DNA from: Rikenellaceae bacterium
GTDB lineage: Bacteria > Bacteroidota > Bacteroidia > Bacteroidales > Rikenellaceae
Direction of reading: 5' to 3'
Assembly (NCBI GenBank): GCA_031262465.1
Contig: JAISHQ010000091.1
Span: forward strand, 3,064 to 67,063
DNA: 64,000 bases
Below are positions 15,131 through 55,585 of this stretch, piece by piece. Position numbers and translations under genes: made by a program. The notes beneath the pieces were generated by a model. The model saw only the letters and a program-made list of their open reading frames with translations, was not told the origin of the DNA and searched no databases. Positions within the stretch are counted from its first letter, which is position 1; every line of letters starts with the position of its first letter.

Positions 15131-15131
15131 A

Positions 15132-17376: not shown

Positions 17377-17412
17377 TTTTCAAAGTTTAAATACAGAAAC
17401 TATTAATTTGAT

Positions 17413-19348: not shown

Positions 19349-19352
19349 AATA

Positions 19353-21522: not shown

Positions 21523-21550
21523 TATTTAACTAATCTATTAGAGGTGTGCC

Positions 21551-22642: not shown

Positions 22643-22652
22643 ATTTAAACTA

Positions 22653-23650: not shown

Positions 23651-23686
23651 TTTAAACTATGAATGAATGAGACTATAAATAGATCG

Positions 23687-24856: not shown

Positions 24857-24913
24857 AATGATTAATTTTGAAGGTGACTAAATTACATCTACTATGTTAG
24901 CTGCAGACAGAAT

Positions 24914-26446: not shown

Positions 26447-26486
26447 GCTTGTTTATATTACTCTATAATTTCAATTTATTCATACT

Positions 26487-27341: not shown

Positions 27342-27355
27342 GTTGTCTGTATGGA

Positions 27356-28450: not shown

Positions 28451-28532
28451 CAGTTTAATTATTTTGTAAATTCAAATTATTTCACTAAATCTTATGTAGC
28501 CCGCCCGCCGCGCCGGTAACCAATACTTTCAT

Positions 28533-29843: not shown

Positions 29844-31792
29844 GCGATTACTGTCTGTTTTTTAGTTTTGTCGAACTGTTCGAAGACAGAGTTGTTGGAT
29901 TTGTATTCGGGGACGGTTGCTTTCATCAGGCGAACCATGTCGGTAATTTGGAACGTCTTGGCCAGCTCGCCCAGCCGATTCACCACTTCGTTGGCTTTCG
30001 CGTAATCGTATTCGCATACCGTGGCGATGCGGATGCGGTCGTGCGAGGTGGGCAATGTGTTTTCGACATCCGACAGCACCTCTTCGTAGAGTTTCTCGCC
30101 CGGACGCAAGCCCGTGTATTCAATCTGAATATCCTTGCCTGGAATGAACCCGGCCAAGCTAATCATCTTGGTTGCCAAGTCGGCAATTTTGACCGGTTCT
30201 CCCATGTCGAAGACCATGATCTGGTTGCCTTTACTAATCGTTGCGGCCTCCATAACCAGACGGCAGGCCTCGGGGATGGTCATAAAAAACCGGATGATGT
30301 CGGGGTGGGTGACCGTCACCGGGCCGCCCGAGGCGATCTGTTCCCGAAACAGCGGAATTACCGAGCCGTTGGAGCCGAGCACATTACCAAAACGGGTCGT
30401 GATGAATTTCGTGTTCCCCTTGATTTCACCGCGTGACAAGGCTATACCGAGCGACTGAACATAGATTTCGGCCAGCCGTTTGGTGCAACCCATGATGTTG
30501 GTCGGGTTGACCGCTTTGTCGGTCGAAATCATCACCATCTTCTCGACATTGTATTGCAGGCATTTGTTGGCCACGTTGCGCGAGCCGACCACATTCACCG
30601 CGACAGCTTCGCACGGATTCTCCTCCATCAGCGGCACGTGCTTATAGGCCGCCGCATGGAAAACAACCTCGGGACGGTAGGTTCGGAAGGCGACATCCAG
30701 CCGATCTTCCAAGCGCACATCGCCAATCATCGGGACGAAATTGAGCTTGGGGAATTTTTTCTCCAATTCCAGCCGCAACGTATGAATGGGCGTTTCGGCA
30801 TTATCGAACAGGATCAACTGTTTGACACCAAAGGTGGCAAGTTGACGGCACAATTCCGACCCGATCGACCCGGCGGCACCGGTGATCAAAACGCGCTTTC
30901 CGGACAAATTCTCTTTGATTTTGTCCATCGAGATATTGATCTCCTCGCGCCCCAACAGGTCTTCGATGCGCACTTCGCGGACTTTATTTTTACCCGATTC
31001 TGTGCCGACAAATTCGTCCACCTGCGGGGCGATGAGTGTACGGATCGGTCGCTTTCCACCTTTCTCGCAATAGTGTATCAGCCGTTTGCTCTCGGCTTGC
31101 ACATCTTTTGAGGTGGCAAACAATATGGCATCAATGTCGTTTTTTTCAATCACTTGCTCAAATTGACTCTCGTCGGAGAACGTAAAGTTTGGCAACTCCG
31201 AGATGCGGTACGAGTTTAACTTTTTACCGTAATTGATGAATCCGACAACCTTATAGTGCTCGCTCTTTTGCAGGCGTGTTTTGAGTGCCACGCTCTTGTC
31301 GCCGTTGCCGTATATGAGAATGCGTGTCTGGGTTTTGACAATTTTTTTCAATGCCCAGTCATACACGAGCAACATCGTAACCCTCACGCTTACCAGAAAA
31401 AGCATGGTAAGCAGAATGTCGAGTAACACACCTAACCAAAGTGCATTGATGGTAAGATTCACAATCGGCAAGAAATACAACGCCCCGAATAGCAATGCCT
31501 TACTTGAATATATCGCCAAACCGATTGTCCACAGACCTTTCAGCGATGAGTGTCGTATGATGTTATGGTGTGTGCGGTACAGGTAGAAGCAACCCAAACT
31601 AATAACAAAGGAGAGGAGTACGATCCGAAATAAATCGGTTGCTGAAATGGATGTCGGCATAAAATATTTGACCAACAAAAAGGCAAACAAGGTCGCCACA
31701 ACCGACAAACAGACATCAATAGCGAGGACAAACCAGTAACTGAGGTACCGGTTAAATAAAACGTTTTTTGTTATCTTGAGAGAATGACTCAT
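29840..31792 (-). CDS. Membrane-anchored polysaccharide biosynthesis protein CapD/WbpM/PglF type (UDP-GlcNAc 4,6-dehydratase)
   Basis: 650 aa. Four N-terminal TM helices, then a Rossmann domain KRVLITGAAGSIGSEL and MGCTKRLAE. Classic WbpM architecture. Confidence 0.85.
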   Translation of the reverse strand: MSHSLKITKNVLFNRYLSYWFVLAIDVCLSVVATLFAFLLVKYFMPTSISATDLFRIVLLSFVISLGCFYLYRTHHNIIRHSSLKGLWTIGLAIYSSKALLFGALYFLPIVNLTINALWLGVLLDILLTMLFLVSVRVTMLLVYDWALKKIVKTQTRILIYGNGDKSVALKTRLQKSEHYKVVGFINYGKKLNSYRISELPNFTFSDESQFEQVIEKNDIDAILFATSKDVQAESKRLIHYCEKGGKRPIRTLIAPQVDEFVGTESGKNKVREVRIEDLLGREEINISMDKIKENLSGKRVLITGAAGSIGSELCRQLATFGVKQLILFDNAETPIHTLRLELEKKFPKLNFVPMIGDVRLEDRLDVAFRTYRPEVVFHAAAYKHVPLMEENPCEAVAVNVVGSRNVANKCLQYNVEKMVMISTDKAVNPTNIMGCTKRLAEIYVQSLGIALSRGEIKGNTKFITTRFGNVLGSNGSVIPLFREQIASGGPVTVTHPDIIRFFMTIPEACRLVMEAATISKGNQIMVFDMGEPVKIADLATKMISLAGFIPGKDIQIEYTGLRPGEKLYEEVLSDVENTLPTSHDRIRIATVCEYDYAKANEVVNRLGELAKTFQITDMVRLMKATVPEYKSNNSVFEQFDKTKKQTVIA

Positions 31793-31812
31793 AATTCGTT
31801 ACAATCTCTTTA

Positions 31813-32535
31813 TCAAAGATTATTCGCTGATGCTATGTCTTGCAAAGCGTTTAAAGCCTCTTTTTTAATCTCTTTTCGGTTGAGATTTTCTTTCCAGAAT
31901 GAGAGATAGTGTGTGTCGCTGCCTGTCAGGTTGTACATCCCGTTTTCCAACAGCCGTTCCGCCTTTTTCTTTGTCTCGGAGCCATATACGCCAACCAACG
32001 AGAATAAGTTGAGTTGGAACTTCACGTTCATGGCTTTCAGTCGCCCGTAATCCGATTCGCCCATATAGACATACCGTTCGGGGTGAGCCAACACGGGATG
32101 ATAGCCTTTTGACCGGATGCGTTCCAGCGTACCGTACAAATCCATCGGCGGATTTAAAAAAGAAGTTTCTACCAACAAGCTGTCGCCCTTCTCGCCCAAC
32201 GGCAACAGGTCGTTTTGCGCCAAGCGCTCCTCAAAGAGGTTGTCGAGCATATTTTCGGCGGCCAAGTGAAGTTCCACTTTTCCGCCATAAGCCCCTTGCA
32301 ACTCGGCGAAACGTTCCCGCAATTCGGCGGTCGTGTTGGGTATATCCTCCATGATGTGCGGGGTGAGCCAAACGGTTTTTATGCCCAATGTTTCGTACAG
32401 GCTCAGTATCTTCAGCGACTCCTCCAAGGTCTCCACACCGTCGTCCACTCCCGGCAGGATGTGACAGTGCCACTCAGTAAACCCCTGAAATACACCGCTA
32501 TCTTTTAGTGAAGTACGTTTTTGAAATGGCCACAT
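31813..32535 (-). CDS. PHP-family protein-tyrosine phosphatase (CpsB/CapC type)
   Basis: Start set at MWPFQKR (ATG 32535). HCHILPGVDDG is the CpsB signature, followed by HLAAE, AHPERY and GSDTH metal-binding motifs. The Arg-rich 99-codon N-terminal extension of ORF 31813..32832 overlaps upxY and was rejected. Confidence 0.8.
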   Translation of the reverse strand: MWPFQKRTSLKDSGVFQGFTEWHCHILPGVDDGVETLEESLKILSLYETLGIKTVWLTPHIMEDIPNTTAELRERFAELQGAYGGKVELHLAAENMLDNLFEERLAQNDLLPLGEKGDSLLVETSFLNPPMDLYGTLERIRSKGYHPVLAHPERYVYMGESDYGRLKAMNVKFQLNLFSLVGVYGSETKKKAERLLENGMYNLTGSDTHYLSFWKENLNRKEIKKEALNALQDIASANNL

Positions 32536-32540
32536 GATTT

Positions 32541-33101
32541 TTACTTCAAAACCTCTATCAAATCGGGATGCACTTCTGCCGCGACCGCCATCACTCCTTC
32601 GAGCATCACGACCACCCGGCGGTTCCGTTTCCCTTTTACTTGCATGAACACACCCTCCACACCGTCGAACCGGCCGCCGTGGATACGCACGCGCGCACCC
32701 CGCTGGATGTCGATTTCTTCGGGCTTGTAATAAACCGTGGTTTCTTCTTCGTGCTGAGAGGCAATTCGGATAAAGCTGTCCATCTGCTGGTCGGGCACCG
32801 TGATGTATTCCAACCCTGTGCTTTTCTCCCACATGACGAACTGCAAAAAATTATACGATTGCTTAAATTCTGTAATCTGCTTTTGGGAGGCGTGTACAAA
32901 TATCAGGTTGGGAATAACCGGTACGAGCCGTCGGGATTTTACTCCGTGATAGACCCTCACCGCATAATGTTTCGGTATGAAATATTCCAAACCATCCTTG
33001 CCGCTGAGTTTTTCTTCCGCCTTCCGCTCGTTTTTATAGGCACTCATGACGAACCACTGGACTTTCTCGATCTCCTCCCGGCTGGTTATGATGGTACTCA
33101 T
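32541..33101 (-). CDS. UpxY-family (NusG/RfaH-like) transcription antiterminator
   Basis: 186 aa. WFVMSAYKNERKAEEKL...EYFIPK... has the NGN-domain pattern, with a C-terminal KOW-like GARVRIHGGRFDGVEGVF. It is the first gene of the polysaccharide locus, as in Bacteroidales capsule loci. Confidence 0.85.
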   Translation of the reverse strand: MSTIITSREEIEKVQWFVMSAYKNERKAEEKLSGKDGLEYFIPKHYAVRVYHGVKSRRLVPVIPNLIFVHASQKQITEFKQSYNFLQFVMWEKSTGLEYITVPDQQMDSFIRIASQHEEETTVYYKPEEIDIQRGARVRIHGGRFDGVEGVFMQVKGKRNRRVVVMLEGVMAVAAEVHPDLIEVLK

Positions 33102-36711: not shown

Positions 36712-37581
36712 ATGCAGGTCGAAATCGACAAACAATCCGGCTTCTGCTTCGGGGTGGTCACCGCCATCCACAAGGCCGAGGAGTCGCTGAGCGGCGGAAA
36801 GCCTGTCTTTTCGCTGGGCGACATCGTGCACAACCGGGTCGAAGTCTCGCGCTTGGAATCCGAGGGGCTGAAGACCGTCTCTCACGCCGATTTTCCGCGC
36901 CTGCGGGGCGAAACGGTGTTGATCCGCGCCCACGGCGAGCCGCCCTCGACCTATCGGCAGGCCGAGGAGCATGGGATTGTGTTGGTCGATGCCACCTGCC
37001 CGGTGGTCTCCAAATTGCAGGAACGGGTCAAAAAGGCCTTTGAGCAGATGCGCGCCGTGCAGGGGCAAGTGGTTATTTTGGGCAAAAAAGGACACGCCGA
37101 AGTGGTCGGTTTGGCCGGGCAGGCCGAAGGGCAGGCCATCATCATCGAAAACCCCGCCGATCTGGAGCAGATCGACTTCGCCCGCCCCGTCTATTTGCTT
37201 TCGCAGACGACCCAAAGCCTCGCTCTGTTCGAGGCCGTAAAAGCCGAAATTCTCCGCCGCGCGGCAGACCCGGTGCAGGTCGTGGTCAATGATACCATTT
37301 GCCGGCAGGTCTCGAACCGCGACCCGCACCTGCGGAATTTTTCCCGGCAGTACGACGTAATTATCTTCGTGAGTGGCAAAAAAAGCTCCAACGGCAAGGC
37401 CCTTTTTGCCGCCTGCATCGAGTCGAACGCTCGCAGTTACCCCGTCGAGGACGAGCAAGAACTTGACCCCGAATGGTTCACCGGCGCAGATTCGGTCGGT
37501 GTTTGCGGAGCCACCTCCACCCCCAAATGGCTGATGGAACGGGTTGCCGAACATATCCGGCAGATGATGGGCCGCACGTAA
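36712..37581 (+). CDS. ispH: 4-hydroxy-3-methylbut-2-enyl diphosphate reductase
   Basis: 289 aa. GFCFGV, ATCPVV and TICRQVSNR carry the three conserved Cys ligands of IspH/LytB. Confidence 0.95.
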   Translation: MQVEIDKQSGFCFGVVTAIHKAEESLSGGKPVFSLGDIVHNRVEVSRLESEGLKTVSHADFPRLRGETVLIRAHGEPPSTYRQAEEHGIVLVDATCPVVSKLQERVKKAFEQMRAVQGQVVILGKKGHAEVVGLAGQAEGQAIIIENPADLEQIDFARPVYLLSQTTQSLALFEAVKAEILRRAADPVQVVVNDTICRQVSNRDPHLRNFSRQYDVIIFVSGKKSSNGKALFAACIESNARSYPVEDEQELDPEWFTGADSVGVCGATSTPKWLMERVAEHIRQMMGRT

Positions 37582-44276: not shown

Positions 44277-46517
44277 ATGAACAAAACGATCAGAAAAGCA
44301 GTTTTGCTCTGCCTCTCCCTCTGCTGTGGCGTGGCGCTGTCGGCCAACGACGGCTCTTCGCTGTGGTTGGACTATCAGCCCCTTTCGGCTCAAGAGAGCC
44401 AAAAAGCTGAATATACGGCACGGCTGACGGCCATTTCGTACCAAACCGACACCCCGACCATTCAGGCGGCCATCGAGGAGCTTCAATTGGCCTCAGAGGC
44501 CTTGCTTGCACACGCCCCGCAGGCCGTGCGGAGCAACCGGAGCCGTCCGGGCGAAGCGGTGCTGGCCTTCGGGCGCGACCGGGCGATCGGCCAACTGAAA
44601 GCCACCGAGACTCTGTCCGCGCTGGGCGAGGACGGTTACCTGATCCGTTCGGCTGACGACCGCACCTATATTTTGGCCAACAGCGACAAAGGGGTGCTCT
44701 ACGGGGCGTTTCACCTGATCCGCCTGATGCAGACCCGGCAGGACATCTCGGCACTCAACCTCGCCGAAAGTCCCGCTTACGATGCCCGCATCCTGAACCA
44801 TTGGGACAACCTCGACCGCAGTGTCGAACGGGGGTATGCCGGAGCTTCAATTTGGGAGTGGGAAGCGTTGCCGGGCACCGTTTCCGACCGCTATAAAATG
44901 TATGCCCGAGCCAATGCCGCTGTCGGCATCAACGGGAGCGTGTTGAACAACGTCAACGCCAACGCCAATTTCATCACCCCGGCCTATTTGGAAAAAATCA
45001 AGGTCTTAGCCGATATTTTTCGTCCTTACGGCATCCGGGTCTACCTCTCGATCAACTTCAACTCGCCGCAAAGCATCGGGGGCCTCGATACTTCCGACCC
45101 GTTAGATCCTCGTGTACGCGGGTGGTGGAAAGATAAAGCCAAAGAGATTTACGGCTACATCCCCGATTTCGGTGGCTTTTTGGTCAAAGCCAACTCCGAG
45201 GGGCAACCCGGCCCGCAGGATTACGGGCGCACCCACGTCGACGGAGCCAATATGTTGGCCGAGGCGCTGAAGCCTTACGGCGGCCTGATTATGTGGCGCG
45301 CATTTGTTTATACGGTCAATGCGACCGACCCGAGTTACGACCGCGCCATGCAGTCCTATTTGGAGTTTGTGCCGCTCGATGGTCAATTTGCTGATAATGT
45401 GATTGTGCAGGTCAAAAACGGGCCGATCGACTTCCAACCCCGCGAGCCGATCAACTCGCTCTTCGGCGCGATGAAAGAGACTCCGTTGATGATCGAGTTT
45501 CAGATTACGCAGGAGTACCTCGGCCACTCGATTCAGTTGGCTTATCTGGCCCCCATGTACAAGGAGACGCTCGATCAAGACACCTATTGCGCCGGGCCGG
45601 GTTCTACGGTGGCCAAGGTGACCGACGGCGGAGTCTATCCGATTCCTGTTTCGGCCATTGCGGGGGTCGCCAACACGGGAACCGACGCGAATTGGACGGG
45701 GCACATCTTTGCCCAATCCAATTGGTATGGCTTTGGCCGTCTAGCGTGGAACCCCGAGCTGACCAGCGACGCGATCGCCGACGAATGGATTCGGATGACC
45801 TTTACCAACGACCCCGAGTTTGTCGCTCCGGTCAAGGGAATCATGATGGCCTCGCACGAGGCGGCAGTCAACTATATGCAACCGCTTGGTTTACACCATA
45901 TTTTTGCCGGGAATCACCACTATGGCCCCGGGGTATGGGAGCGGCTGAGCCAAACGACGGATCGCCCCGACTGGGTGCCGGAGTGGTACCACCGGGCCGA
46001 TTCGCTGGCGATTGGTTTCGACCGGACAACGGGCGGCACCGGCTACGTTTCGCAATATTTCTCCCCGCTCAAGGAGCTGTATAACAACATCGAGACCTGC
46101 CCGGAGAACCTGTTGCTCTTTTTCCATCGCGTCTCGTGGGATTACCGGATGAAAAATGGCCGCACGCTGTGGGACGAAATGTGTTACAAATACACCGAAG
46201 GCCTCGATGCCGTGCGCGGATTTCAAAAGGATTGGGATCGCCTCGAAGGGAAGATCGACCCCGAACGCTTCCGCCACGTACAGTATAAATTGCGCGAGCA
46301 GACGCGCGATGCGATTTGGTGGCGCGACGGGGTGTTGCTCTATTTCCAATCGCTCAACCACAAGCCGATCCCTTATGAATTGGAACGGCCCATCAATACG
46401 CTGGAACTGCTGATGAGATACCGCATACCGGGTGGCAATTCGTCGGTTGCTCCGGGAGCGCGCCCGCTTGTGATGCCCACCTCGCCGATGGCTCCGGGAG
46501 TTCCCACAACCAACTGA
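44277..46517 (+). CDS. Alpha-glucuronidase, glycoside hydrolase family 67
   Basis: 746 aa with a signal peptide. NDGSSLWLDYQP N-terminal pattern and ARILNHWDNLDRSVERGYAGASIW, both characteristic of GH67 AguA-type enzymes. Confidence 0.9.
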   Translation: MNKTIRKAVLLCLSLCCGVALSANDGSSLWLDYQPLSAQESQKAEYTARLTAISYQTDTPTIQAAIEELQLASEALLAHAPQAVRSNRSRPGEAVLAFGRDRAIGQLKATETLSALGEDGYLIRSADDRTYILANSDKGVLYGAFHLIRLMQTRQDISALNLAESPAYDARILNHWDNLDRSVERGYAGASIWEWEALPGTVSDRYKMYARANAAVGINGSVLNNVNANANFITPAYLEKIKVLADIFRPYGIRVYLSINFNSPQSIGGLDTSDPLDPRVRGWWKDKAKEIYGYIPDFGGFLVKANSEGQPGPQDYGRTHVDGANMLAEALKPYGGLIMWRAFVYTVNATDPSYDRAMQSYLEFVPLDGQFADNVIVQVKNGPIDFQPREPINSLFGAMKETPLMIEFQITQEYLGHSIQLAYLAPMYKETLDQDTYCAGPGSTVAKVTDGGVYPIPVSAIAGVANTGTDANWTGHIFAQSNWYGFGRLAWNPELTSDAIADEWIRMTFTNDPEFVAPVKGIMMASHEAAVNYMQPLGLHHIFAGNHHYGPGVWERLSQTTDRPDWVPEWYHRADSLAIGFDRTTGGTGYVSQYFSPLKELYNNIETCPENLLLFFHRVSWDYRMKNGRTLWDEMCYKYTEGLDAVRGFQKDWDRLEGKIDPERFRHVQYKLREQTRDAIWWRDGVLLYFQSLNHKPIPYELERPINTLELLMRYRIPGGNSSVAPGARPLVMPTSPMAPGVPTTN

Positions 46518-46566
46518 TAAATAAAAACTAACGACATAAAAACAACCAACCCTAAGATTTTAACAG

Positions 46567-47994
46567 ATGAGACAACTTATTAAGACCGCACCCTTAATTC
46601 TTCTTCTTCTTACCACCATGTGTAAAAAACCGGCAGAACCCCCGACCCCGAACTCGGACGAGGAGGTTGTTGTCCCCACAGAACCCACAGAACCCACAGA
46701 ACCAACAGAGCCGACTGAACCGACGGAACCGACAGAGCCGTCAGAGCCGTCAGAACCAGCGGAACCGACTGAACCCACGCTGAAAACGGGCGACGATGCC
46801 TTAGAGCCGTGGACGAAAGGGGCGCGCGAAACGGGCGAGTACCGCAACCTGCTCAAGGAGGCGGGCTATACCGATGCCCAAATTCAGGCGAAATTCGACG
46901 AAATTTGGTACACGATCTTCGAGGGGCCGGATCGCGCTTACGAGGAGGTCGGCAGTGATATGGCCTACCTGTCCGACGTGAAGAACGGCGACGTTCGCAC
47001 CGAGGGGATGTCTTATGGGATGATGATCGCTGTGCAGTTCGACAAAAAGGATATGTTCGACCGCCTCTGGCGTTGGGCCGTGAAGTATATGCAGATCAAG
47101 GACGGGCCGTCGAAAGGCTATTTCTCTTGGCAAGTTCGGCCCGACGGATCGGCCATGGGCTGGTGGGGGCAACCTGCGGGGCCTGCCTCCGACGGAGAGC
47201 TTTACTATGTGACCGCCCTGCTCTTTGCCTCGAACCGCTGGGGCAACGACACGGGGATCGACTACAAAAAAGAGGCTAAATACATCCTCGATGCCATGTT
47301 CAGCAAGACGGGCGAAGGCGATATCCACAACATCTTCAACGAAGAACACCACCTGATTACCTTTGTCCCGAACGGCGAAGGCTCGCGGTACACCGACGTT
47401 TCGTACAACCTGCCCGCTTTCATGGAGATTTGGGCGGAGTTTGCCGATGATGGCCGGGAAGATTTTTGGAACACGGCGGCCACTGCCGCCCGCGAGTACC
47501 TGCACAAGGCGACCGACCCGGTGACGGGCATCAACCCCGACCTGACCGAATTTGACGGTCGGCAATACGGCGACCGCCTCTTCTTCTACGACTCGTGGCG
47601 GGTGCCGATGAACATCGCGATGGATTACAGCTGGTACAACAAAGACGCCACGTGGCAACAGGGCTATGCCAACCGTTTCCAAAAAACGCTTGCCGACCGC
47701 TATGGCGTGGCCAATTACCCGGATCAACTCGCACTCGACGGCAGTGAACCGAGCTGGCACTATGGGGCGGGCGGTTTCATGACCTTGCGCCACTCGATCG
47801 GCTTTACGGGGGCTATGGCCTCGGCCTCGCTGATGGCCACCCGACCCTTAGGTTGGGAATTTATCCACGATATGTTCGCCCAAAAGTTGGAACGCTATGA
47901 AGACGGTTACATCGACACCTATTATGATGGCCTGATCTACCTCTTTGCGCTGATGCACCTGAGCGGACGGTATCAAATTATTTTACCTGAATAA
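46567..47994 (+). CDS. Glycoside hydrolase family 8 (reducing-end xylose-releasing exo-oligoxylanase-like), lipoprotein form with a Pro-Thr-Glu linker
   Basis: 475 aa. SpII-type signal LLLLTTMC, then an 11-unit (P-T/S/A-E) linker, then a GH8 catalytic domain (DVRTEGMSYGMMIAVQFDKK, SDGELYYVTALLFASNRWG, FYDSWRVPMNIAMDYSW). Confidence 0.85.
   Translation: MRQLIKTAPLILLLLTTMCKKPAEPPTPNSDEEVVVPTEPTEPTEPTEPTEPTEPTEPSEPSEPAEPTEPTLKTGDDALEPWTKGARETGEYRNLLKEAGYTDAQIQAKFDEIWYTIFEGPDRAYEEVGSDMAYLSDVKNGDVRTEGMSYGMMIAVQFDKKDMFDRLWRWAVKYMQIKDGPSKGYFSWQVRPDGSAMGWWGQPAGPASDGELYYVTALLFASNRWGNDTGIDYKKEAKYILDAMFSKTGEGDIHNIFNEEHHLITFVPNGEGSRYTDVSYNLPAFMEIWAEFADDGREDFWNTAATAAREYLHKATDPVTGINPDLTEFDGRQYGDRLFFYDSWRVPMNIAMDYSWYNKDATWQQGYANRFQKTLADRYGVANYPDQLALDGSEPSWHYGAGGFMTLRHSIGFTGAMASASLMATRPLGWEFIHDMFAQKLERYEDGYIDTYYDGLIYLFALMHLSGRYQIILPE
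46675..46770 (+). repeat. 9-bp coding tandem repeat (about 11 units) encoding (Pro-Thr/Ser/Ala-Glu)n
   Basis: CCCACAGAA x3, then CCAACAGAG, CCGACTGAA, CCGACGGAA, CCGACAGAG, CCGTCAGAG, CCGTCAGAA, CCAGCGGAA, CCGACTGAA. Read directly. Confidence 0.9.
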
Positions 47995-48024
47995 AGAACA
48001 CTTCTTAAAATTCTATTTTGACCC

Positions 48025-49308
48025 ATGAAACAACTGATTACAACCCTCTCCTTGATCCTTTTGCTTTCTGCCACAGCGAGCAACCTCTCGGCACAACCCC
48101 TGAAAACAGCGGACGATGCACTGACCCCGTGGACGAAAGGGGCGCGCGAAACCGGCCGGTACCGCAACCTGCTCAAGGAGGCGGGCTATTCCGATGCCCA
48201 AATTCAGGCGAAGATCGACGAAATTTGGTACACGATCTACGAAGGGCCGGATCGCGCTTACGAGGAGGTCGGCGACAGCATGGCCTATTTGGCCGACGTG
48301 AAAAACAACGACGTTCGCACCGAGGGGATGTCCTACGGGATGATGATCGCTGTGCAGTTCGACAAAAAAGAGATGTTCGACCGCCTTTGGCGTTGGGCGG
48401 TGAAGTATATGCTGAACACCGAGGGGCCGTCGAAAGGCTATTTCGCTTGGCACGCTCGACCGGACGGATCGCAAGTCGGCCGGTTTAAGCCGGGGCCTGC
48501 CTCCGACGGGGAGCTTTACTATGTGACTGCTCTGCTCTTTGCCTCGAACCGTTGGGGCGACGATACGGGGATCAACTACAAAAAAGAGGCTCAAAACATC
48601 CTCAATGCCATGTTCAGCAAGACGGGCGAAGGGGGGATTCACAACATTTTCAACGAAGAGCACCACCTGATTACCTTCACTCCGGACGGCAACGGTTGGC
48701 AGTACACCGATGTTTCGTACAACCTGCCCGCCTTCATGGAAATTTGGGCGGAGTTTGCCGACGATGGCCGGGCCGATTTTTGGCGGCAGGCGGCCACCGC
48801 CGCCCGCGAGTACCTGCACAAGGCGACCGACCCGGTGACGGGTATCAACCCCGACCTGACCACCTTCGAGGGCGAGCCTTATGGCAACCGCCTCTTCTTC
48901 TACGACTCGTGGCGGGTGCCGATGAACATCGCGATGGATTACAGCTGGTATAACAAAGACGCCGAATGGCAACAGGGCTATGCCAATCGTTTCCAAAAGA
49001 CGCTCGCCGACCGCTATGGCGTGGCCAATTACCCCGATCAGCTCGCTCTGGACGGCAGTGAACCGAGCTGGTTCTTCGGCGCGGGCGGTTTCAATACCCT
49101 GCGCCACTCGATCGGCTTTACGGGCACCATGGCTTCGACCTCGCTGATGGCCACCCAACCGTTGGGCTGGGAATTTATCCACGATATGTTCGCCCAAAAG
49201 TTGGAACGCTATGAAGACGGTTACATCGACACCTATTACGATGGCCTGATCTACCTCTTCGCGCTGATGCACTTGAGCGGACGGTATCAAATCATACTGC
49301 CACAATAA
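48025..49308 (+). CDS. Glycoside hydrolase family 8, tandem paralogue with an SpI-type signal and no linker
   Basis: 427 aa. Collinear with 46567..47994 and identical at most positions from LKT(G/A)DDAL onward. Its signal peptide MKQLITTLSLILLLSATASNLSAQ has no lipobox Cys. Confidence 0.85.
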   Translation: MKQLITTLSLILLLSATASNLSAQPLKTADDALTPWTKGARETGRYRNLLKEAGYSDAQIQAKIDEIWYTIYEGPDRAYEEVGDSMAYLADVKNNDVRTEGMSYGMMIAVQFDKKEMFDRLWRWAVKYMLNTEGPSKGYFAWHARPDGSQVGRFKPGPASDGELYYVTALLFASNRWGDDTGINYKKEAQNILNAMFSKTGEGGIHNIFNEEHHLITFTPDGNGWQYTDVSYNLPAFMEIWAEFADDGRADFWRQAATAAREYLHKATDPVTGINPDLTTFEGEPYGNRLFFYDSWRVPMNIAMDYSWYNKDAEWQQGYANRFQKTLADRYGVANYPDQLALDGSEPSWFFGAGGFNTLRHSIGFTGTMASTSLMATQPLGWEFIHDMFAQKLERYEDGYIDTYYDGLIYLFALMHLSGRYQIILPQ

Positions 49309-49360
49309 ACTCACAATCACTCTTATATTACATTTTGTTGTTTTTAAACTATTTATCACG

Positions 49361-51991
49361 ATGAAAAAAATGTTACTCTTTGTGCTGTTGGCATCGGTGG
49401 TCGGCCTTTTTGGTCGATGCACGCAGACCCAGTACGAGTATCCGTTCCAAAATCCGAAGCTCTCGACCGAGGAACGGGTCGAAAACCTGCTCTCCCTGCT
49501 GACCTTAGAAGAAAAGGTAGGCATGATGATGGACGTTTCCAAACCCGTTGAACGGTTGGGTATCCCGGCCTACGACTGGTGGAACGAAGCGTTGCACGGC
49601 GTGGCTCGCGCCGGACTGGCCACGGTCTTTCCGCAGGCGATCGGGATGGCCGCCACGTGGAACGAGGCCGGACACCAACAGACGTTCGACATCATTTCGG
49701 ACGAGGCCCGCGCCAAATACAATCAGGCGCAACGCGAAGGAAATACCAGCCGCTATTACGGCCTTTCGTTCTGGACTCCGAACGTCAATATCTTCCGCGA
49801 CCCGCGTTGGGGACGGGGACAGGAGACCTATGGGGAAGACCCCTTCCTGACCTCCCGCTTAGGTGTTGCCGCCGTGTTGGGGCTTCAGGGCAACGACAAG
49901 AAATACTTTAAATCACACGCCTGTGCCAAGCACTATGCCGTTCACAGCGGGCCGGAGGGCAACCGCCACTCCTACAACGCCATCTCTTCGGGGCGCGACC
50001 TGTGGGAAACCTACCTGCCGGCTTTCGATGCGCTGATCCACGAGGCCAACGTGCAGGAAGTAATGTGTGCCTACAACGCCTTTGAAGGGCAACCCTGTTG
50101 CGGCAACGACATCCTGTTGACCGACATTCTCCGCGAAAAATGGGGGTACACGGCCATGGTTGTTTCGGACTGCTGGGCGATCAACGACTTCTTCCAAGTG
50201 GGTCACCACGAAACCCACGCCGATGCGGCCGAAGCCTCTGCCGACGCGGTACTTCACGGAACCGATGTGGAATGCGGCAGTGCCTATGAAGCGCTGATTC
50301 AAGCGGTTGCGGACGGTCAGATCACCGAAGAGCAGATCAACGTGTCGATGCGTCGCGTCCTGCGCGGTTGGTTTGAATTGGGTATGCTCGATCCGGAAGA
50401 CCTGACCCCGTGGGCCAAATTGCCCTATTCGATCGTGGCTTCCGAGAAACACCGCGCCAAAGCGTTGCAGGTGGCTCGCGAGTCGATGACCCTGCTCAAA
50501 AACAGCAACGGGGTACTCCCGCTGAGCAAAGAGATTAAGAAGATCGCCGTGATCGGAGCCAATGCCGACGACAGCACCATGCTCTGGGGTAACTACAACG
50601 GAACTCCGGCCTCGACGGTGACCATTCTCGAAGGCATTCAGGCCAAATTACCCAATGCCGAAGTGATCTACGAACGCGGTGCCGACTTAGTTGACCCGTG
50701 GGTGAGAACCTCGCTCTATGAAAACTTCCAGAGCGGAGAGGCCAAAGGGATGAAGGTCGATTTCTACAACACGACCGACTTCTCCGGCGCGCCGGTGACC
50801 GTCATCAACAGCGAAGGCATCAACTACAACAACGCCGGTGCCGCGTTGGCCGAAGGGGTGAACCGCGAAAATACCTCGACCCGCATCGCCGGAACGTTCA
50901 AGGCTCCTTACACGGGACAGGTTGTCTTCTCCGTGCGCGCTTCGGACGGTTATAAACTCAACATCAACGGTCGTCAGGCGTTGGCCTTGACCGGTCGTGC
51001 GGCCAGCACCCCGACCGAATACGCGCTCGACGTGGTTGCCGGTCAAAACTACAACGTCGTGCTCGATCACACCCAGACCGGTCGTCGGGTGAGCATCGAA
51101 ATGCAGGTCTACAAAAAGGAACCGATCGAGTTCTCCGCTTTGGTGGCCAAACTCACCGACGTGGACGCTATCGTTTACGTGGGCGGCCTTTCGCCCCGTT
51201 TGGAAGGGGAAGAGATGCCGGTGACGGCTGAAGGATTCCAGTCCGGCGACAAAATCTCGATCGACCTGCCGCGCGTACAACGCCAACTGTTGGCCGACCT
51301 CAAATCGACCGGCAAACCGGTGGTCTTTGTGCTCTGCACCGGCAGCTCGCTGGCGTTGGAACAGGACGAAATGAATTACGATGCCCTGCTTTGCGCCTGG
51401 TATGGTGGCGAAGCGGCCGGTACGGCGGTGGCCGACGTGCTCTTTGGCGATTACAACCCGGCGGGTCGTCTGCCGGTGACGTTCTACAAGACCCTCGCTC
51501 AATTGGACAATGCGTTGGCCAAAACCGACGATCCGGCGCGTCAGGGCTTTGAAAACTACGACATGACGGGCCGCACCTACCGTTACATGACCGAAGCTCC
51601 GCTCTATCCCTTCGGACACGGCTTGAGCTATTCGACCTTCGCTTATGGCGATGCGAAATTGGATGCCCAAACGATCTCGACCGGCAACGGAACCCACATC
51701 ACGATTCCGGTGACCAATAGCTCCGACATCGCTGGCGACGAAGTGGTTCAGGTCTATGTGAAACGGAACAACGATCCGACCGCTCCGGTCAAGAACCTGC
51801 GCGCGTTCAAACGGGTTCACATCGAACCGGGCAAGACGCAAGAGATTACCTTGCAGATCGACCCCGCTTCGTTCGAGTTCTACGACGCGGCGGCTGACGG
51901 CTTAGTTGCCAAACCCGGCTCATACACGATCCTCTACGGCGGCACCTCCGCCGACGCCGGCCAAAAAAGCCTGAGCCTCACCGTTCAATAG
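49361..51991 (+). CDS. Glycoside hydrolase family 3 beta-xylosidase/beta-glucosidase with an inserted PA14-like domain
   Basis: 876 aa. GH3 motifs FPQAIGMAATWN, KHYAVHSGPE, and VVSDCWAI (nucleophile Asp region). There is an extra beta-sandwich segment between the (alpha/beta)6 domain and the C-terminal Fn3-like domain. Confidence 0.9.
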   Translation: MKKMLLFVLLASVVGLFGRCTQTQYEYPFQNPKLSTEERVENLLSLLTLEEKVGMMMDVSKPVERLGIPAYDWWNEALHGVARAGLATVFPQAIGMAATWNEAGHQQTFDIISDEARAKYNQAQREGNTSRYYGLSFWTPNVNIFRDPRWGRGQETYGEDPFLTSRLGVAAVLGLQGNDKKYFKSHACAKHYAVHSGPEGNRHSYNAISSGRDLWETYLPAFDALIHEANVQEVMCAYNAFEGQPCCGNDILLTDILREKWGYTAMVVSDCWAINDFFQVGHHETHADAAEASADAVLHGTDVECGSAYEALIQAVADGQITEEQINVSMRRVLRGWFELGMLDPEDLTPWAKLPYSIVASEKHRAKALQVARESMTLLKNSNGVLPLSKEIKKIAVIGANADDSTMLWGNYNGTPASTVTILEGIQAKLPNAEVIYERGADLVDPWVRTSLYENFQSGEAKGMKVDFYNTTDFSGAPVTVINSEGINYNNAGAALAEGVNRENTSTRIAGTFKAPYTGQVVFSVRASDGYKLNINGRQALALTGRAASTPTEYALDVVAGQNYNVVLDHTQTGRRVSIEMQVYKKEPIEFSALVAKLTDVDAIVYVGGLSPRLEGEEMPVTAEGFQSGDKISIDLPRVQRQLLADLKSTGKPVVFVLCTGSSLALEQDEMNYDALLCAWYGGEAAGTAVADVLFGDYNPAGRLPVTFYKTLAQLDNALAKTDDPARQGFENYDMTGRTYRYMTEAPLYPFGHGLSYSTFAYGDAKLDAQTISTGNGTHITIPVTNSSDIAGDEVVQVYVKRNNDPTAPVKNLRAFKRVHIEPGKTQEITLQIDPASFEFYDAAADGLVAKPGSYTILYGGTSADAGQKSLSLTVQ

Positions 51992-52033
51992 CCTGCCTAA
52001 AAAACAAGGGGCGAATTTCAGCCCCTATTACCA

Positions 52034-52074
52034 ATAGCGGCTGTCTCAATTTTGAGACAGCCGCTATTTTTTTT
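52034..52074 (+). terminator. Intrinsic terminator of the GH cluster
   Basis: ATAGCGGCTGTCTCAA-TT-TTGAGACAGCCGCTAT followed by T8, 43 nt after the GH3 stop. Confidence 0.75.
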
Positions 52075-52105
52075 GCATTTTTTTGCATAAAATTTTGTTT
52101 TTCCG

Positions 52106-52119
52106 TTTTTTTTTTTTTT
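52106..52119 (+). repeat. T14 homopolymer tract
   Basis: 14 consecutive T residues counted directly (52106..52119), 85 nt upstream of the ATG at 52204. Confidence 0.9.
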
Positions 52120-52203
52120 GATTTACAAGATTATTTGTAAAGATATTCTTGAGAGAATGGAATCCATATTGTAAAAAGAACTAAAAAACAAACTTAAACC
52201 AAT

Positions 52204-55200
52204 ATGAAGAAAATTTTACTTTTTGTCGCGGCTATCGTCCTGACCGTGAGCGGATGTAGCGAAAAGTACGACGACACCTCTGTGTGGGATGCGATCGACC
52301 AACAAGATGAGCGCAACAACTCGCAGGACAGTCGGCTTTCTTCGCTCGAAGCATGGCAAAAACAGGTTAATACCGATATTGCTACCTTGAAGGCTTTGGT
52401 CGAGGCTTCACAAAATGGTGACCACATTGTGAAAGTCGAGACACATTCCTCCGGCAACGGCGGCCATATAATCACGTTGGCTTCGGGCAAAACGCTCACC
52501 ATCAACAACGGTGCCACAGGTGCCACGGGTGAAAAGGGTGAAACTGGTGCCGCAGGTGCTCAAGGTATCCAAGGCGAAACCGGTTCCGCAGGTGCCGCAG
52601 GCTACACACCGCTTGTTAGTGTAAAGCTGGACGAAGACGGCGCTTATTATTGGACTCTCGATGGCGAGTTTATCGTTGTCGATGGCCAAAAATTGCCCGT
52701 TACAGGAGCCAAAGGCGATAAAGGTGATAAAGGTGACAAGGGCGACAAAGGCGATCCCGGAGCAACCGGCCCTCAAGGTCAAACTGGTGCAACCGGCCAA
52801 GACGGTGCGATACCGGAGTTTTACATCATAGATGGCTATTGGTACGTTTCCTATGACGGAGGAAACACAAAGGAACAGATTGGTCAGGCAACTGGCGAAG
52901 CTGGTCCTACCGGTGCCACTGGAGCCACCGGTGCTCAGGGCGAAACCGGTCCTGCTGGTCCTACCGGAGCGACTGGCCCTAAAGGCGATTCGTTCTTCAA
53001 AAGTGTCACTCAGGACGACAACTCCGTCACCTTTACCCTTTCGGACAATACCGTTATCATCATTCCCAAGATCGCGCCGCTGAGCATTGCTTTCGACGAA
53101 GAAGACCTGTTGGTGGCCATGAACGCCTCTTCGACCCGAAGTGTCGGCTATACCGTATCCTCTGAAGCCAGCCCGATTGCGATCGAACTCTTTGCCTCGG
53201 ACGACATCACGGCCACCCTTACCCCCGCCGACGCGAGCGGGCTGACGGGCGAGATCGAGCTGACGACCTCCGCCACGATCACCGAGAAGAGCAAAGTCGT
53301 TGTCTTTGTCTCGAACGGCGAAAAGTTGATTATGCGCACGCTTCACTTCGAGCCGCAAGGGTTGCAAGTTGAGGAAGAGGTTGTCAAAGAGGCTACGCCC
53401 GAGGGCGGCGAGGTGGCGTTGGAATTTTTGTCGAACACGCCGTGTGAGGCCGTTATTCCCGCCGAGGCTCGGTCGTGGATCAGCGTCGCCCCCCAAACCC
53501 GCGCACTGGAAAAGCAGACCATCACGCTAATTCTCCAGCCCAATACCGGGTACGATCGCAGTGCAGTGGTCACAATTCAGTCCGAGGACGGCTCCCTGTT
53601 TGTCGAATACACCGTCGAACAGGAGGGCGATTTGGGTTCTTCCACCGATGTGCTGGCCATGATCCCCGACCCGGCGTTTTTGGCCGAATGTCAGCGGATG
53701 ATGCCAGAGTGGGATACCAACGGCGACGGCAAACTCTCTCCCGCAGAAGCGGCGGCAGTAAAGTATATGCGTGTTTATGAAATGGGGATTATATCCTTGT
53801 CGGGGATAGAGTATTTTACAGGCTTGACGGAACTAAACTGCAGCAACAATCAACTCACTTTACTGAATGTGTCGAACAATATTGCGTTGAGATCATTGTT
53901 TTGCAGTATGAATCAACTTACCGCACTCGATGTATCGAAGAATACGGCATTGACATCTTTGAACTGCCAGTACAATCAACTCACGGCACTCGATATATCA
54001 AATAATACTGCGTTGATCACTATTTTCTGCACAAACAATAAATTGACTTCGCTGGATGTATCAAATAATACCGCTTTGGAATACTTGTACTGCAACGGGA
54101 ATCAACTCACCACGTTGGATGTGTCGAAAAATACTGCATTGAGATATTTATACTGCTATTCCAATCAACTCACGGCATTGGATGTGTCAAAGAACACATC
54201 TCTAACAAACTTCCTTGGTGACTATAATCAACTTACCTCGCTCGACATCTCCAAAAACACCTCGCTGTCACAATTTTCTTGCGGAAATAACCCTGGCGAC
54301 GGTGTCTCGACATTTCCTGTGAAAGCATGGTTCGACAATAGTGCGATTCCCTTGGATTTTTTGAATCTGCGCTGGAAATGGTATGAGAATATGATCTCCC
54401 CCGTCTATTATACGGGCGACACCCCGCCCGAAGGAAATATACTGTATGAATCCACCGACTATTCCGAGGACGGCAAAGTTACCGTGTTGCAACGAGCCAC
54501 CGAGGGCGCGGGCATCGACATTGTGCTGATGGGCGACGGTTATTCCGACCGACAGATTGCCGCCGGAAATTATGCCGAGGTGATGCAATTTGCCGCCGAA
54601 GACTTCTTTACCGTAGAGCCTTACAAGTCATTCAAGCACTTATTCAATGTCTATGCCGTCACTGTTGTTTCGAAAAACGAAGGATACATGGGAGAAACTG
54701 CCTTGCAGTTCTCATATGATGTGAATAATTACGTGACTATCTTCGACTATGCGCTTAAAGCTATCAGTTCAGATCAGATGGACGAGGCATTGATAGTTCT
54801 CATAATGAATACCGACATAGTGGCAGCTGGACACTGCGCTATGTTTTTTCCAGAATCATCGAACGATTGGGGTTCGGGGATTTCGGTCGCTTATTTCCCC
54901 GCTGTATTGAATGACAAGCCGGGATTTTCCCATTTTCTCTATCATGAAGCCAACGGTCACGGCTTTGCCAAACTTGACGACGAGTATGGTCAGTCGTCAT
55001 CTTTCAGAGAGACTATGCCGGCTGAAAGCGTGGCAAGCGTGCGCGCGGCTCAAACCAATTATGGCTGGTGGAAAAATGTCGATTTCACCAGCGACCTCTC
55101 TACTATTCGCTGGAACTACTTCCTAAGCGACCCGCGCTATGCGAACGAGGGTTTGGGTGCTTATCAGGGTGGCAATGGCTATACGTACGGCGTGTGGCGA

Positions 55201-55518
55201 CCAAGCCTAATGAGTATTATGAACGACGGCGAGTTTAGGAATACCAAGTTCAACGCCCCGAGCCGTGAGGCGATCTATTACCGTATCCACAAGCTGGCTT
55301 ACGGCGCGAGCTGGCAGTACGATTATGAGACGTTTGTGGAGTGGGACTTGGCTCACCGCCCGACGAGTGCCGCCACCCGGTCAGCAAGTTCCCCTGCTCG
55401 GTCAGCCAGCTCCTCTGCTCGATCGGCCAACGTGGGCGAGGGCACGGTTCTCAAACCCGTGCCTCACACCCCGCCCGTCGTGCACCCCTATTCGTGGCGG
55501 GAAGCCGGAAAGAATTAA
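52204..55518 (+). CDS. Large multidomain lipoprotein: coiled-coil, collagen-like Gly-X-Y segments, BACON-like domain, leucine-rich repeats and M64-like metallopeptidase domain
   Basis: 1104 aa. Lipobox LTVSGC. Three Gly-X-Y runs at aa 103-133, 167-201 and 230-262 (for example GAKGDKGDKGDKGDKGDPGATGPQGQTGATGQDG). About seven 22-aa LRRs at aa ~527-697 (NQLTALDVSKNTALTSLNC...). The C-terminal region GIDIVLMGDGYSD...HEANGHGFAKLDDEY resembles IgA peptidase M64. The tail carries a 21-bp repeat (RSASSPA/RSASSSA). Confidence 0.85.
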   Translation: MKKILLFVAAIVLTVSGCSEKYDDTSVWDAIDQQDERNNSQDSRLSSLEAWQKQVNTDIATLKALVEASQNGDHIVKVETHSSGNGGHIITLASGKTLTINNGATGATGEKGETGAAGAQGIQGETGSAGAAGYTPLVSVKLDEDGAYYWTLDGEFIVVDGQKLPVTGAKGDKGDKGDKGDKGDPGATGPQGQTGATGQDGAIPEFYIIDGYWYVSYDGGNTKEQIGQATGEAGPTGATGATGAQGETGPAGPTGATGPKGDSFFKSVTQDDNSVTFTLSDNTVIIIPKIAPLSIAFDEEDLLVAMNASSTRSVGYTVSSEASPIAIELFASDDITATLTPADASGLTGEIELTTSATITEKSKVVVFVSNGEKLIMRTLHFEPQGLQVEEEVVKEATPEGGEVALEFLSNTPCEAVIPAEARSWISVAPQTRALEKQTITLILQPNTGYDRSAVVTIQSEDGSLFVEYTVEQEGDLGSSTDVLAMIPDPAFLAECQRMMPEWDTNGDGKLSPAEAAAVKYMRVYEMGIISLSGIEYFTGLTELNCSNNQLTLLNVSNNIALRSLFCSMNQLTALDVSKNTALTSLNCQYNQLTALDISNNTALITIFCTNNKLTSLDVSNNTALEYLYCNGNQLTTLDVSKNTALRYLYCYSNQLTALDVSKNTSLTNFLGDYNQLTSLDISKNTSLSQFSCGNNPGDGVSTFPVKAWFDNSAIPLDFLNLRWKWYENMISPVYYTGDTPPEGNILYESTDYSEDGKVTVLQRATEGAGIDIVLMGDGYSDRQIAAGNYAEVMQFAAEDFFTVEPYKSFKHLFNVYAVTVVSKNEGYMGETALQFSYDVNNYVTIFDYALKAISSDQMDEALIVLIMNTDIVAAGHCAMFFPESSNDWGSGISVAYFPAVLNDKPGFSHFLYHEANGHGFAKLDDEYGQSSSFRETMPAESVASVRAAQTNYGWWKNVDFTSDLSTIRWNYFLSDPRYANEGLGAYQGGNGYTYGVWRPSLMSIMNDGEFRNTKFNAPSREAIYYRIHKLAYGASWQYDYETFVEWDLAHRPTSAATRSASSPARSASSSARSANVGEGTVLKPVPHTPPVVHPYSWREAGKN

Positions 55519-55543: not shown

Positions 55544-55585
55544 AGCGGCTGTCTCCCCCTCGGAGACAGCCGCTTTGGGTTTTTG
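55544..55585 (+). terminator. Intrinsic terminator of the multidomain lipoprotein gene
   Basis: AGCGGCTGTCTCC-CCCTC-GGAGACAGCCGCT followed by TTGGGTTTTT, 26 nt after the stop. It could also serve the convergent kdsC gene. Confidence 0.7.

Follow-up and report, generated by a model that had tools for sequence, protein, structure and literature searches.

A predicted surface lipoprotein of an uncultured Rikenellaceae bacterium combines a collagen-like stalk, leucine-rich repeats and an M64-fold domain with a HEXXGH motif

We analyzed a stretch of 64,000 nucleotides, hereafter the window, from contig JAISHQ010000091.1 of an uncultured Rikenellaceae bacterium (assembly GCA_031262465.1, positions 3,064 to 67,063), and in particular a gene that encodes a protein of 1104 amino acids (aa). 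Five Pfam families matched the protein above their curated cut-offs: DUF4988 (PF16378; 93.8 bits against a cut-off of 30, E=1.5e-26), Peptidase_M64 (PF09471; 65.3 bits against 26, E=6.9e-18), LRR_4 (E=1e-14), Collagen (52.8 bits against 27.2, E=3.5e-14) and BACON (PF13004; 33.6 bits against 25, E=3.8e-8). The features of the gene and its flanks, in window positions, are listed below.

52033..52068, + strand: hairpin upstream of the gene, a 16-bp stem followed by T8 (hairpin scan)
52069..52203, + strand: A/T-rich intergenic leader, in which the promoter is presumed to lie
52204..55518, + strand: complete open reading frame (ORF) with an ATG start, 1104 aa plus stop codon (ORF list)
52204..52257, + strand: signal peptide of the signal peptidase II type (SpII) with lipobox LTVSG-C18 (Pfam and sequence; C18 is invariant in the family)
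52258..52275, + strand: acidic motif S-E-K-Y-D-D after the Cys, resembling a lipoprotein export signal
52276..52509, + strand: N-terminal part of DUF4988, with a long helix at aa 25-70 and three beta-strands at aa 75-101 (Pfam and predicted secondary structure)
52510..52608, + strand: Gly-X-Y run 1, aa 103-135, 11 triplets
52609..52704, + strand: DUF4988 beta module 1, which contains YYWTLDGEFIVVDG; Y148-E155 invariant
52705..52812, + strand: Gly-X-Y run 2, aa 168-203, 12 triplets, including (KGD)n
52813..52893, + strand: DUF4988 beta module 2 (FYIIDGYWYVSYDGG)
52894..52992, + strand: Gly-X-Y run 3, aa 231-263, 11 triplets
52993..53397, + strand: beta segment after the collagen-like runs (end of DUF4988) and a first Ig-like beta-sandwich, aa 296-398
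53398..53643, + strand: BACON domain, matched by Pfam at aa 419-474
53644..54408, + strand: leucine-rich repeat (LRR) domain of the InlJ class, with a helical N-cap at aa 481-540, seven 21-residue units at aa 541-687 and a C-cap
54409..55380, + strand: M64-like metallopeptidase domain, aa 736-1059
54943..54987, + strand: putative zinc and catalytic motif H914-E915-A-N-G918-H919-G-F-A-K923-L-D-D926-E927-Y928, of which the numbered residues are clade-invariant
55381..55464, + strand: low-complexity Ser/Ala/Arg linker, disordered in the structure model and partly coded by a 21-bp repeat
55465..55515, + strand: conserved C-terminal tail HTPPVV...SW.EA, in which P1090, P1091, V1092 and W1098 are invariant
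55544..55574, + strand: hairpin downstream of the gene, a 13-bp stem followed by a T-rich run, between the ORF and a convergent KdsC-like gene

A previous interpretation of the same DNA, made by inspection of the sequence and its translations (the sequence-only reading), had described the product of ORF 52204-55518 as a 1104-aa lipoprotein with collagen-like, BACON-like, LRR and M64-like parts in this order. The start codon, the full reading frame and the signal were all recovered, each of the named parts reached its Pfam threshold, and the residue boundaries proved correct to within a few residues. Thus, the three Gly-X-Y runs placed at aa 103-133, 167-201 and 230-262 consist of perfect triplets at aa 103-135, 168-203 and 231-263, the Ig/BACON-like segment placed at aa ~400-476 contains the BACON match, and the lipobox quoted as LTVSGC carries a Cys that does not vary across the family. 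Also, the 21-bp repeat reported to encode the Ser/Ala/Arg tail at 55378..55431 was retrieved by Tandem Repeats Finder (TRF) at 55378-55429, with 2.1-2.3 copies and 82-86% matches.

We modeled residues 735-1104 with AlphaFold2 from an alignment of 49 sequences. The model was confident (predicted local distance difference test, pLDDT, 85.5; predicted template modeling score, pTM, 0.86), except for the S/A/R-rich residues 1060-1087, and the C-terminal tail was modeled as a strand and a short helix that pack back onto the peptidase domain. In a Foldseek search, the top 17 matches were all M64 structures (probability 1.0, TM-scores of 0.45-0.53 and 17-21% identity), including BF3526, BACOVA_00663 and four entries for the immunoglobulin A (IgA) protease of T. 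ramosa, and the next tier consisted of ADAM and snake-venom metzincins with E-values of about 1e-3. The assignment of this region to M64 in the sequence-only reading is in line with these matches and with the Pfam score, and a close relative is named by NCBI "M64 family metallopeptidase [Alistipes putredinis]". According to the model, the domain has an M64 fold and is distant from every characterized member. No M64_N beta-sandwich was identified by Pfam ahead of the peptidase domain; this position is occupied by the LRR domain.

The motif quoted earlier as typical of M64 is present at aa 914-928 (HEANGHGFAKLDDEY), but its departure from the hallmark had been overlooked, as it reads HEANGH, that is HEXXXH (HEXXGH) and not HEXXH. 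The M64 hallmark is HEXXHXXXGXXD, and in BF3526 the ligands are H311, H315 and D322, with E312 as the base and Y324 nearby (PMC12402451). The sequence HEANGH aligns to HEF-GH of BF3526 and BACOVA_00663, and a profile of 49 relatives displayed the same one-residue insertion relative to both BF3526 and the T. ramosa IgA protease. Relative to BF3526, the insertion shifts the His and Glu at the start of the motif by one position, the second His and the Asp stay in register, as do the Glu-Tyr pair and the downstream Met, and the hallmark Gly of HEXXHXXXG is replaced by an invariant Lys (K923).

Among the 120 closest domain relatives, 119 have the six-residue motif, as do 149 of 150 cluster representatives and all but two of 77 ORFs from species-representative genomes (75/77), and the clade form reads HE-x-x-G-H-G-F-x-K-L-x-D-E-Y. 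Residues H914, E915, G918, H919, K923, D926, E927, Y928 and M1006 are invariant in alignments with a mean column identity of 38-50%. The sole clade member seen with a five-residue motif, HECGH, is P0225 (586 aa), which is otherwise a typical sequence of the HEXXGH clade. Most relatives have a Cys inside the zinc motif (HEACGH). In the protein studied here, C878 is the only Cys of the peptidase domain; it is clade-invariant and located in a strand that precedes the active-site helix. A single Cys rules out a second zinc site of the Cys3-Glu type seen in BF3526. Active enzymes with both HEXXGH and HEXXH are found in family M49, where HEXXGH is the normal form in dipeptidyl peptidase III (DPP III) and some active variants carry HEXXH (PMC5805324, PMC9820243), and TldD uses HEXXXH (PMC5810440). 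Because the motif is conserved throughout the clade and has these precedents, the zinc site is probably functional. DPP III shares with the clade the spacing of HEXXGH and the same Gly, and its active five-residue variants find a parallel in P0225, but the likeness is confined to the motif: DPP III has an unrelated fold, is cytosolic and takes its third ligand, a Glu, from a second motif.

The best structural match was to BF3526 of B. fragilis (PDB 4DF9, 9QDI) and BACOVA_00663 (PDB 3P1V) from M64 cluster CL-I (Foldseek E=2e-14, TM-score about 0.5). They also gave the best sequence-profile match (E=1e-14), yet with an identity of only about 20%, and are likewise secreted proteins of Bacteroidales. 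BF3526 is a single head of ~400 aa with HEFGH, an N-terminal beta-sandwich gate and the Cys3-Glu second zinc site, whereas the protein studied here has HEANGH and an LRR domain in front. The N-terminal domain of BF3526 gates the active site, and fragments without it digest proteins non-specifically (PMC12402451). Since the gating domain is missing here, the peptidase head may, by analogy with these fragments, act on larger substrates than BF3526 in an endopeptidase-like manner.

For the LRR domain, about seven 22-residue repeats of the BspA type had been proposed at aa ~527-697. Seven full units are indeed present, but with a period of 21 residues and at aa 541-687, and they belong to the InlJ class with a Cys ladder; BspA-type repeats (LRR_5) do occur at this position in most of the relatives. 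In nearly all units the sixth position is a Cys (residues 546, 567, 588, 609, 630, 651 and 693, which are 21 or 42 apart), and TRF detected a period of 63 bp in the DNA (3 x 21 aa). Among solved structures, the domain matched InlJ of Listeria (3bz5, E=5e-73) and InlA (E=1e-11), and its best NCBIfam match was to internalin_J, with an E-value of 3e-37 and a score far below the equivalog cutoff. InlJ represents an internalin class with 21-residue repeats (PMC5915736, citing Bublitz et al. 2008 for the cysteine ladder). As judged from the repeats, the protein belongs to the same repeat class as InlJ and is not an InlJ orthologue. The 21-residue units and the cysteine ladder are held in common with InlJ of Listeria (PDB 3BZ5) and P. 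gingivalis, which both act as surface adhesins, while the protein described here differs in having fewer units (7), no LPXTG anchor, no internalin-type Ig-like inter-repeat domain and a fusion of the LRRs to a peptidase. The GC content of the LRR segment (53644-54408) is 0.437, as compared to 0.56-0.57 in the stalk and Ig/BACON segments and in the genome, and 0.57-0.58 in the flanks; this suggests acquisition of the LRR cassette by recombination and would agree with a recent import.

The coiled-coil-like stretch and the beta-rich modules noted in the sequence-only reading are both present, but together they constitute a single Pfam family, DUF4988, which had not been named; it is matched in three stretches that are split by the Gly-X-Y runs. 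The (KGD)n sequence of the second run is coded by a 9-bp tandem repeat at 52711-52755. The helix at aa 25-70 has heptad-like spacing in the family consensus, and the N-terminal part of DUF4988 is presumed to be a trimerization nucleus. In addition, NCBIfam BT_3328_fam matches aa 1-104 (E=7e-7). A monomer prediction for the full-length protein was of low confidence (pLDDT 46, pTM 0.28), too poor for domain packing and used for secondary structure only; in it, residues 25-70 form the helix, the Gly-X-Y runs are unstructured and beta modules lie between them. Among the relatives, the total number of Gly-X-Y triplets ranges from 7 to 88, and the triplets are found at the same three insertion points.

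The presentation of a globular head on a Gly-X-Y stalk is shared with Scl1 and Scl2 of S. pyogenes and Lcl of Legionella, as are Thr and charged residues in place of hydroxyproline and a triplet number that varies between alleles, and weak NCBIfam matches were obtained to SclB, SclA and Lcl. BclA of B. anthracis is a further bacterial collagen-like surface protein. Unlike in these proteins, beta modules divide the stalk into three short runs, the predicted anchor is an N-terminal lipid rather than LPXTG or the exosporium, and the head consists of LRRs and an enzyme. With other DUF4988 lipoproteins, such as A6KZV4 of P. vulgatus and the N-terminus of the BT3328-family surface hyaluronan lyases, the protein has the lipobox, the helix and the beta module in common, but here long Gly-X-Y runs interrupt DUF4988, and the head consists of LRRs and a peptidase. 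In the whole-protein search, the DUF4988 and collagen N-terminus was found to carry other heads elsewhere, namely BNR, DUF2020, FGE-sulfatase, Glug with Peptidase_M26_N, DUF1566 and Big_2, which suggests that this module is a general display scaffold in Bacteroidales. In the full-text literature, three mentions of DUF4988 were found, all of them incidental. A phage origin of the stalk was considered and rejected: the matches to PHROG tail fibers fall largely on the Gly-X-Y runs and hence mostly reflect repeat composition, the peptidase domain matches no phage family, and the region is ordinary chromosome.

The N-terminus of the protein, MKKILLFVAAIVLTVSGC, is matched weakly by Pfam LPAM_1 (E=0.025). 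Three acidic residues are located within the first seven positions after the Cys, and Y22, D23 and D24 are invariant in the family, in which the motif typically reads SKEYDD. The export signals CS(D/E)2 and K-(D/E)2 drive surface exposure of lipoproteins in B. thetaiotaomicron and C. canimorsus, and also packing into vesicles (PMC6222051). A DUF4988 protein of P. vulgatus is the antigen of monoclonal antibodies that are specific to this species (PMC12078515). Neither Por_Secre_tail nor any other family of C-terminal sorting domains of the type IX secretion system was found among the Pfam matches at E<=1, and a search of the protein for the Bacteroides O-glycosylation motif D(S/T)(A/I/L/M/T/V) gave no occurrence.

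We searched for relatives with the whole protein and with the C-terminal domain. The whole-protein search returned no sequence above about 50% identity; a dozen of its matches, unnamed proteins from metagenomes with lengths of 1111-1518 aa, contain the Pfam families of the window protein and share their order. In an exact-protein index, the protein and its GH3 and KdsC-like neighbors were all absent as exact sequences, a single-protein scan of 185,579 species genomes gave no relative, and the JGI metagenomes contained no match to an exact 47-nt pattern or in a protein scan. The C-terminal domain alone gave 930 word-index matches, and 2490 matches were obtained when 1.84 billion cluster representatives were scanned exhaustively with HMMER; 1106 of these (50%-identity representatives) were at E<=1e-30. 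Most of the relatives matched by HMMER are 700-1700 aa long, with the M64-like domain at the extreme C-terminus.

To survey the architectures, the modules of the window protein and the LRR and thioredoxin-like segments of its relatives were compared with 151 sequences. About 130 of the 151 sequences have LRRs ahead of the peptidase domain, and 26 have a DUF4988-type N-terminus. All five elements in order (N-terminal module, collagen, BACON, LRR and M64) were seen in 15, that is the window protein and 14 of the 150 representatives. In the GTDB species-representative genomes, 386 stretches encode relatives, and architectures were counted in the best 75 loci. Of the 27 ORFs in which the full architecture was present, 18 contain BspA-type LRR_5 and 2 contain LRR_4; the other 7 contain "typical" LRRs, which in some of them are accompanied by a thioredoxin-like insert. 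Two loci, L001 from an uncultured Alistipes sp. and L002 from a Bacteroidales metagenome-assembled genome (MAG) of buffalo colon, match the window protein exactly in Pfam architecture. All of these relatives are from MAGs (Alistipes, Tidjanibacter, other Rikenellaceae, Egerieisoma, Barnesiella, Prevotellaceae and Bacteroidaceae), mostly of ruminant and bird hindguts. The sequence-only reading had not recognized the combination as a described architecture; the same domain order recurs in these relatives, but no member of the group is functionally annotated.

The modules differ in their conservation. Identity to the nearest full-length relatives is 62-71% in BACON, the most conserved module, 53-57% in the peptidase domain, 46-56% in the Ig-like domain, 43-47% in the stalk, 37-39% in the LRRs (where only relatives of the shared LRR class can be compared) and 26-36% in the N-terminal helix, and three unrelated LRR classes occur at the LRR position among the relatives. 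Since the stalk and the LRR position vary while BACON and the peptidase domain are conserved, the pattern fits a display scaffold in which the catalytic head stays constant, the targeting domain can be exchanged and the spacer varies in length.

Additional domains were observed in some of the relatives. About a third of them have a thioredoxin-like segment between the LRRs and the M64-like domain (for example P0003, P0243 and P0255, and L008, L021 and L030), with a weak match to AhpC-TSA of 24 bits, just under the cut-off; with this insert, the Cys within the motif of most relatives and the invariant Cys in mind, a redox link is conceivable. The closest relative of the C-terminal domain, P0241 (1264 aa, 63% identity), has an Omp28 domain between its LRR_4 repeats and the M64-like domain. 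Tandem full-length paralogues were found in one Bacteroidales MAG (L074, at 3361-7062 and 7183-10851), one with "typical" LRRs and one with LRR_5; the first of these (3361-7062) has no recognizable zinc motif in the ORF as called.

Upstream of the gene and on the same strand (44277-51991, +) are genes for a GH67 alpha-glucuronidase, two GH8 enzymes and a GH3 enzyme with PA14 and Fn3-like domains, which form a cluster for the degradation of glucuronoxylan oligosaccharides. The genes downstream are convergent and encode KdsC-like, DUF2520, YihY/BrkB, THUMP-like methyltransferase and ComEC proteins, and further off Cmk, IspH, Lnt and Nth, so that the surrounding region is ordinary chromosome. The IspH protein (36712-37581) is 100% identical to MDR0955026.1 of a Rikenellaceae MAG; the matches that follow are at 96-97% (JGI entries) and then at 78-79%, with Rikenella at about 67%, which places the organism in an uncultured lineage of the Rikenellaceae. 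None of nine neighbors in the window was found in the 75 related loci, and no family of neighbors of the relatives recurs in more than 6 of the 75. A functional link to the adjacent xylan-degrading cluster was rejected because the cluster is not kept beside the relatives, and from these comparisons the gene appears to be a stand-alone unit. Elsewhere in the window, a low-GC island on the minus strand (14000-32800; GC 0.33-0.41, as compared to 0.55-0.59 elsewhere) holds a polysaccharide locus of the capsule or O-antigen type, with epimerases and dehydratases, two GT2 and one GT1 glycosyltransferases, a GHMP kinase, an EpsG-type polymerase, two Polysacc_synt_2 proteins, a UDP-glucose dehydrogenase and CpsB/CapC. 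The island was probably exchanged horizontally.

The gene had been regarded as monocistronic between two terminators. Both hairpins were found, and a single-gene unit is plausible since the downstream gene is convergent. The upstream hairpin is likely the terminator of the GH3 gene, which ends at 51991, and no exact copy of the Bacteroidota promoter motif TAnnTTTG was found in the leader. The core of the stem, AGCGGCTGTCTC/GAGACAGCCGCT (12 nt), is identical in the two hairpins (52036-52065 and 55544-55574), while their loops differ. Within the 64 kb, an 11-mer of the stem was found solely at the two flanks of the gene, as 4 half-sites against 0.95 expected by chance, and the stem is absent from all 75 related loci. 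A duplicated terminator and a cassette boundary are both possible origins of the shared stem; a repeated extragenic element seems less likely, given that the stem is confined to the two flanks and missing from the related loci. Overall, the scan for hairpins followed by T-runs gave no enrichment over shuffled sequences (7 sites versus 5.1 +/- 2.7).

Our preferred interpretation, which we judge to have an even chance of being correct, is that the gene encodes an outer-membrane lipoprotein that forms a surface-exposed trimeric stalk of variable length and displays LRR-guided metallopeptidase heads. The protein would be lipidated at Cys18 and anchored in the outer membrane, and the acidic motif after the Cys, with its likeness to an export signal, would direct it to the cell surface. 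Since collagen repeats form three-chain helices, the chains would trimerize through the helix of ~46 residues and the three Gly-X-Y segments, which alternate with the DUF4988 beta modules to give a segmented stalk. From ~0.29 nm per residue for 102 collagen residues and ~0.15 nm per residue for 46 helical residues, the stalk would be roughly 30-35 nm long, and it would bear the two Ig/BACON-type domains as a spacer. The InlJ-class solenoid would capture a protein ligand, which the C-terminal M64-fold zinc metallopeptidase would then cleave at the HEXXGH...D site. The sequence-only reading had suggested a stalked surface protease or decoy that binds host proteins; the stalked surface protein with binding and protease modules agrees with our data, but its link to IgA is unsupported.

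Several observations weigh against this interpretation. The canonical HEXXHXXXGXXD is departed from, and zinc binding is assumed. The SEKYDD sequence is acidic and conserved, yet it is not an exact copy of the published consensus CS(D/E)2 or K-(D/E)2. The full-length structure model is poor (pLDDT 46), and the Gly-X-Y runs are Pro-poor and only 11-12 triplets each, so that the stability of a triple helix is uncertain. There is also no conserved gene neighborhood that hints at a pathway, and the clade has no characterized member and no functional name or paper for any of its proteins.

The serious alternative is a non-catalytic adhesin, in which the one-residue insertion has inactivated the zinc site and the M64-like domain is a binding or structural head. 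It has to be taken seriously because of the lost hallmark motif, and it agrees with the lack of counterparts to the three Cys of the second zinc site in BF3526, for which only C878 is available, as well as with the role of collagen-like and InlJ-type LRR proteins as adhesins elsewhere, for example InlJ of P. gingivalis (PMC5915736). However, hundreds of sequences that are otherwise ~50% identical share, without exception, the putative ligands and general base together with the Gly, Asp, Glu, Tyr and Met residues, which is not how decayed active sites normally look. M49 enzymes and TldD are active with HEXXGH and HEXXXH sites, respectively, and a clade member with the five-residue HECGH exists (P0225). 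We therefore consider the loss of activity improbable. The location of the protein is a separate matter, and a lipoprotein that faces the periplasm or the vesicle lumen and acts on envelope proteins would be compatible with the deviation of SEKYDD from the experimentally defined signals and with the lack of a Pfam match to a type IX sorting domain. This is quite improbable in view of the three acidic residues near the Cys and the family-invariant Y-D-D, the BACON and LRR modules that are typical of extracellular Bacteroidales proteins, and the species-specific antibodies that target a DUF4988 protein of P. vulgatus; a stalk of tens of nanometers would also seem too big for the periplasm.

An IgA-specific protease for immune evasion, with the LRRs and the collagen-like stalk docking onto host IgA, is what would follow if the cleavage of host IgA by M64 were transferred to this protein, as in the sequence-only reading. 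The PF09471 match, the resemblance of the fold to the T. ramosa IgA protease and the origin from a host-associated gut member of the Bacteroidales agree with such a role, and Bacteroidales M64 homologues are routinely labeled as IgA peptidases in the literature by homology alone (PMC4936053). The transfer fails, since ThomasA of T. ramosa, which belongs to the Firmicutes cluster CL-V, is the sole M64 IgA protease, while BF3526, a Bacteroides enzyme and the closest structural match, leaves intact IgA uncleaved and acts only by trimming peptides from the N-terminus (PMC12402451). The elements by which the catalytic domain of ThomasA recognizes IgA are not conserved outside CL-V, and those that contact Fab are not conserved even in BF3526 (PMC12402451). 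Like the protein studied here, ThomasA (PDB 9QDH, 9I4Z, 9EKK, 9QA6) is a large multidomain cell-surface enzyme of the M64 fold with accessory domains, but it is Gram-positive, has a canonical HEXXH and contains no collagen, LRR or BACON modules, and the profile match between the two spans only the N-terminal third and the motif, at 17-18% identity. Nothing ties the protein to IgA, and this reading is unlikely, the least probable of those considered here.

Retaining the stalked surface protease as the preferred interpretation, the novelty of the finding is limited in that the modules are individually familiar and the architecture is recurrent. What stands out is an M64 fold whose zinc motif is non-canonical throughout the clade, together with LRR cassettes that can be swapped and a collagen-like stalk of variable length. 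M64 homologues of gut Bacteroidales are treated as "IgA peptidases" in genome annotation and in reviews, whereas the protein described here falls in a separate and very large clade that is almost always fused to LRRs, and whose motif departs from the hallmark that a family survey of 2025 reported for nearly all M64 clusters. In terms of zinc-site evolution, the clade would represent a second, independent transition from HEXXH to HEXXGH inside one fold, and the collagen-stalked subgroup hints at a role as trimeric display scaffold for the unexplained DUF4988 module.

More tentatively, and with some doubt on our part, the clade might represent an unrecognized and widespread class of Bacteroidales surface proteases, in which an M64-fold head with a DPP III-like HEXXGH site is combined with interchangeable LRR cassettes (InlJ-type, BspA-type or "typical") and sometimes a thioredoxin-like or Omp28 insert, and in which one sub-lineage is trimeric on a tunable collagen stalk that lifts the head through the capsule. 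Such a system would amount to a re-targetable display of proteases that act on host, dietary or competitor proteins. If active, these proteins would constitute a major uncharacterized group of cell-surface proteases in Rikenellaceae, Muribaculaceae and their relatives, with relevance to protein foraging, the turnover of mucus or immune proteins, and interactions between microbes.

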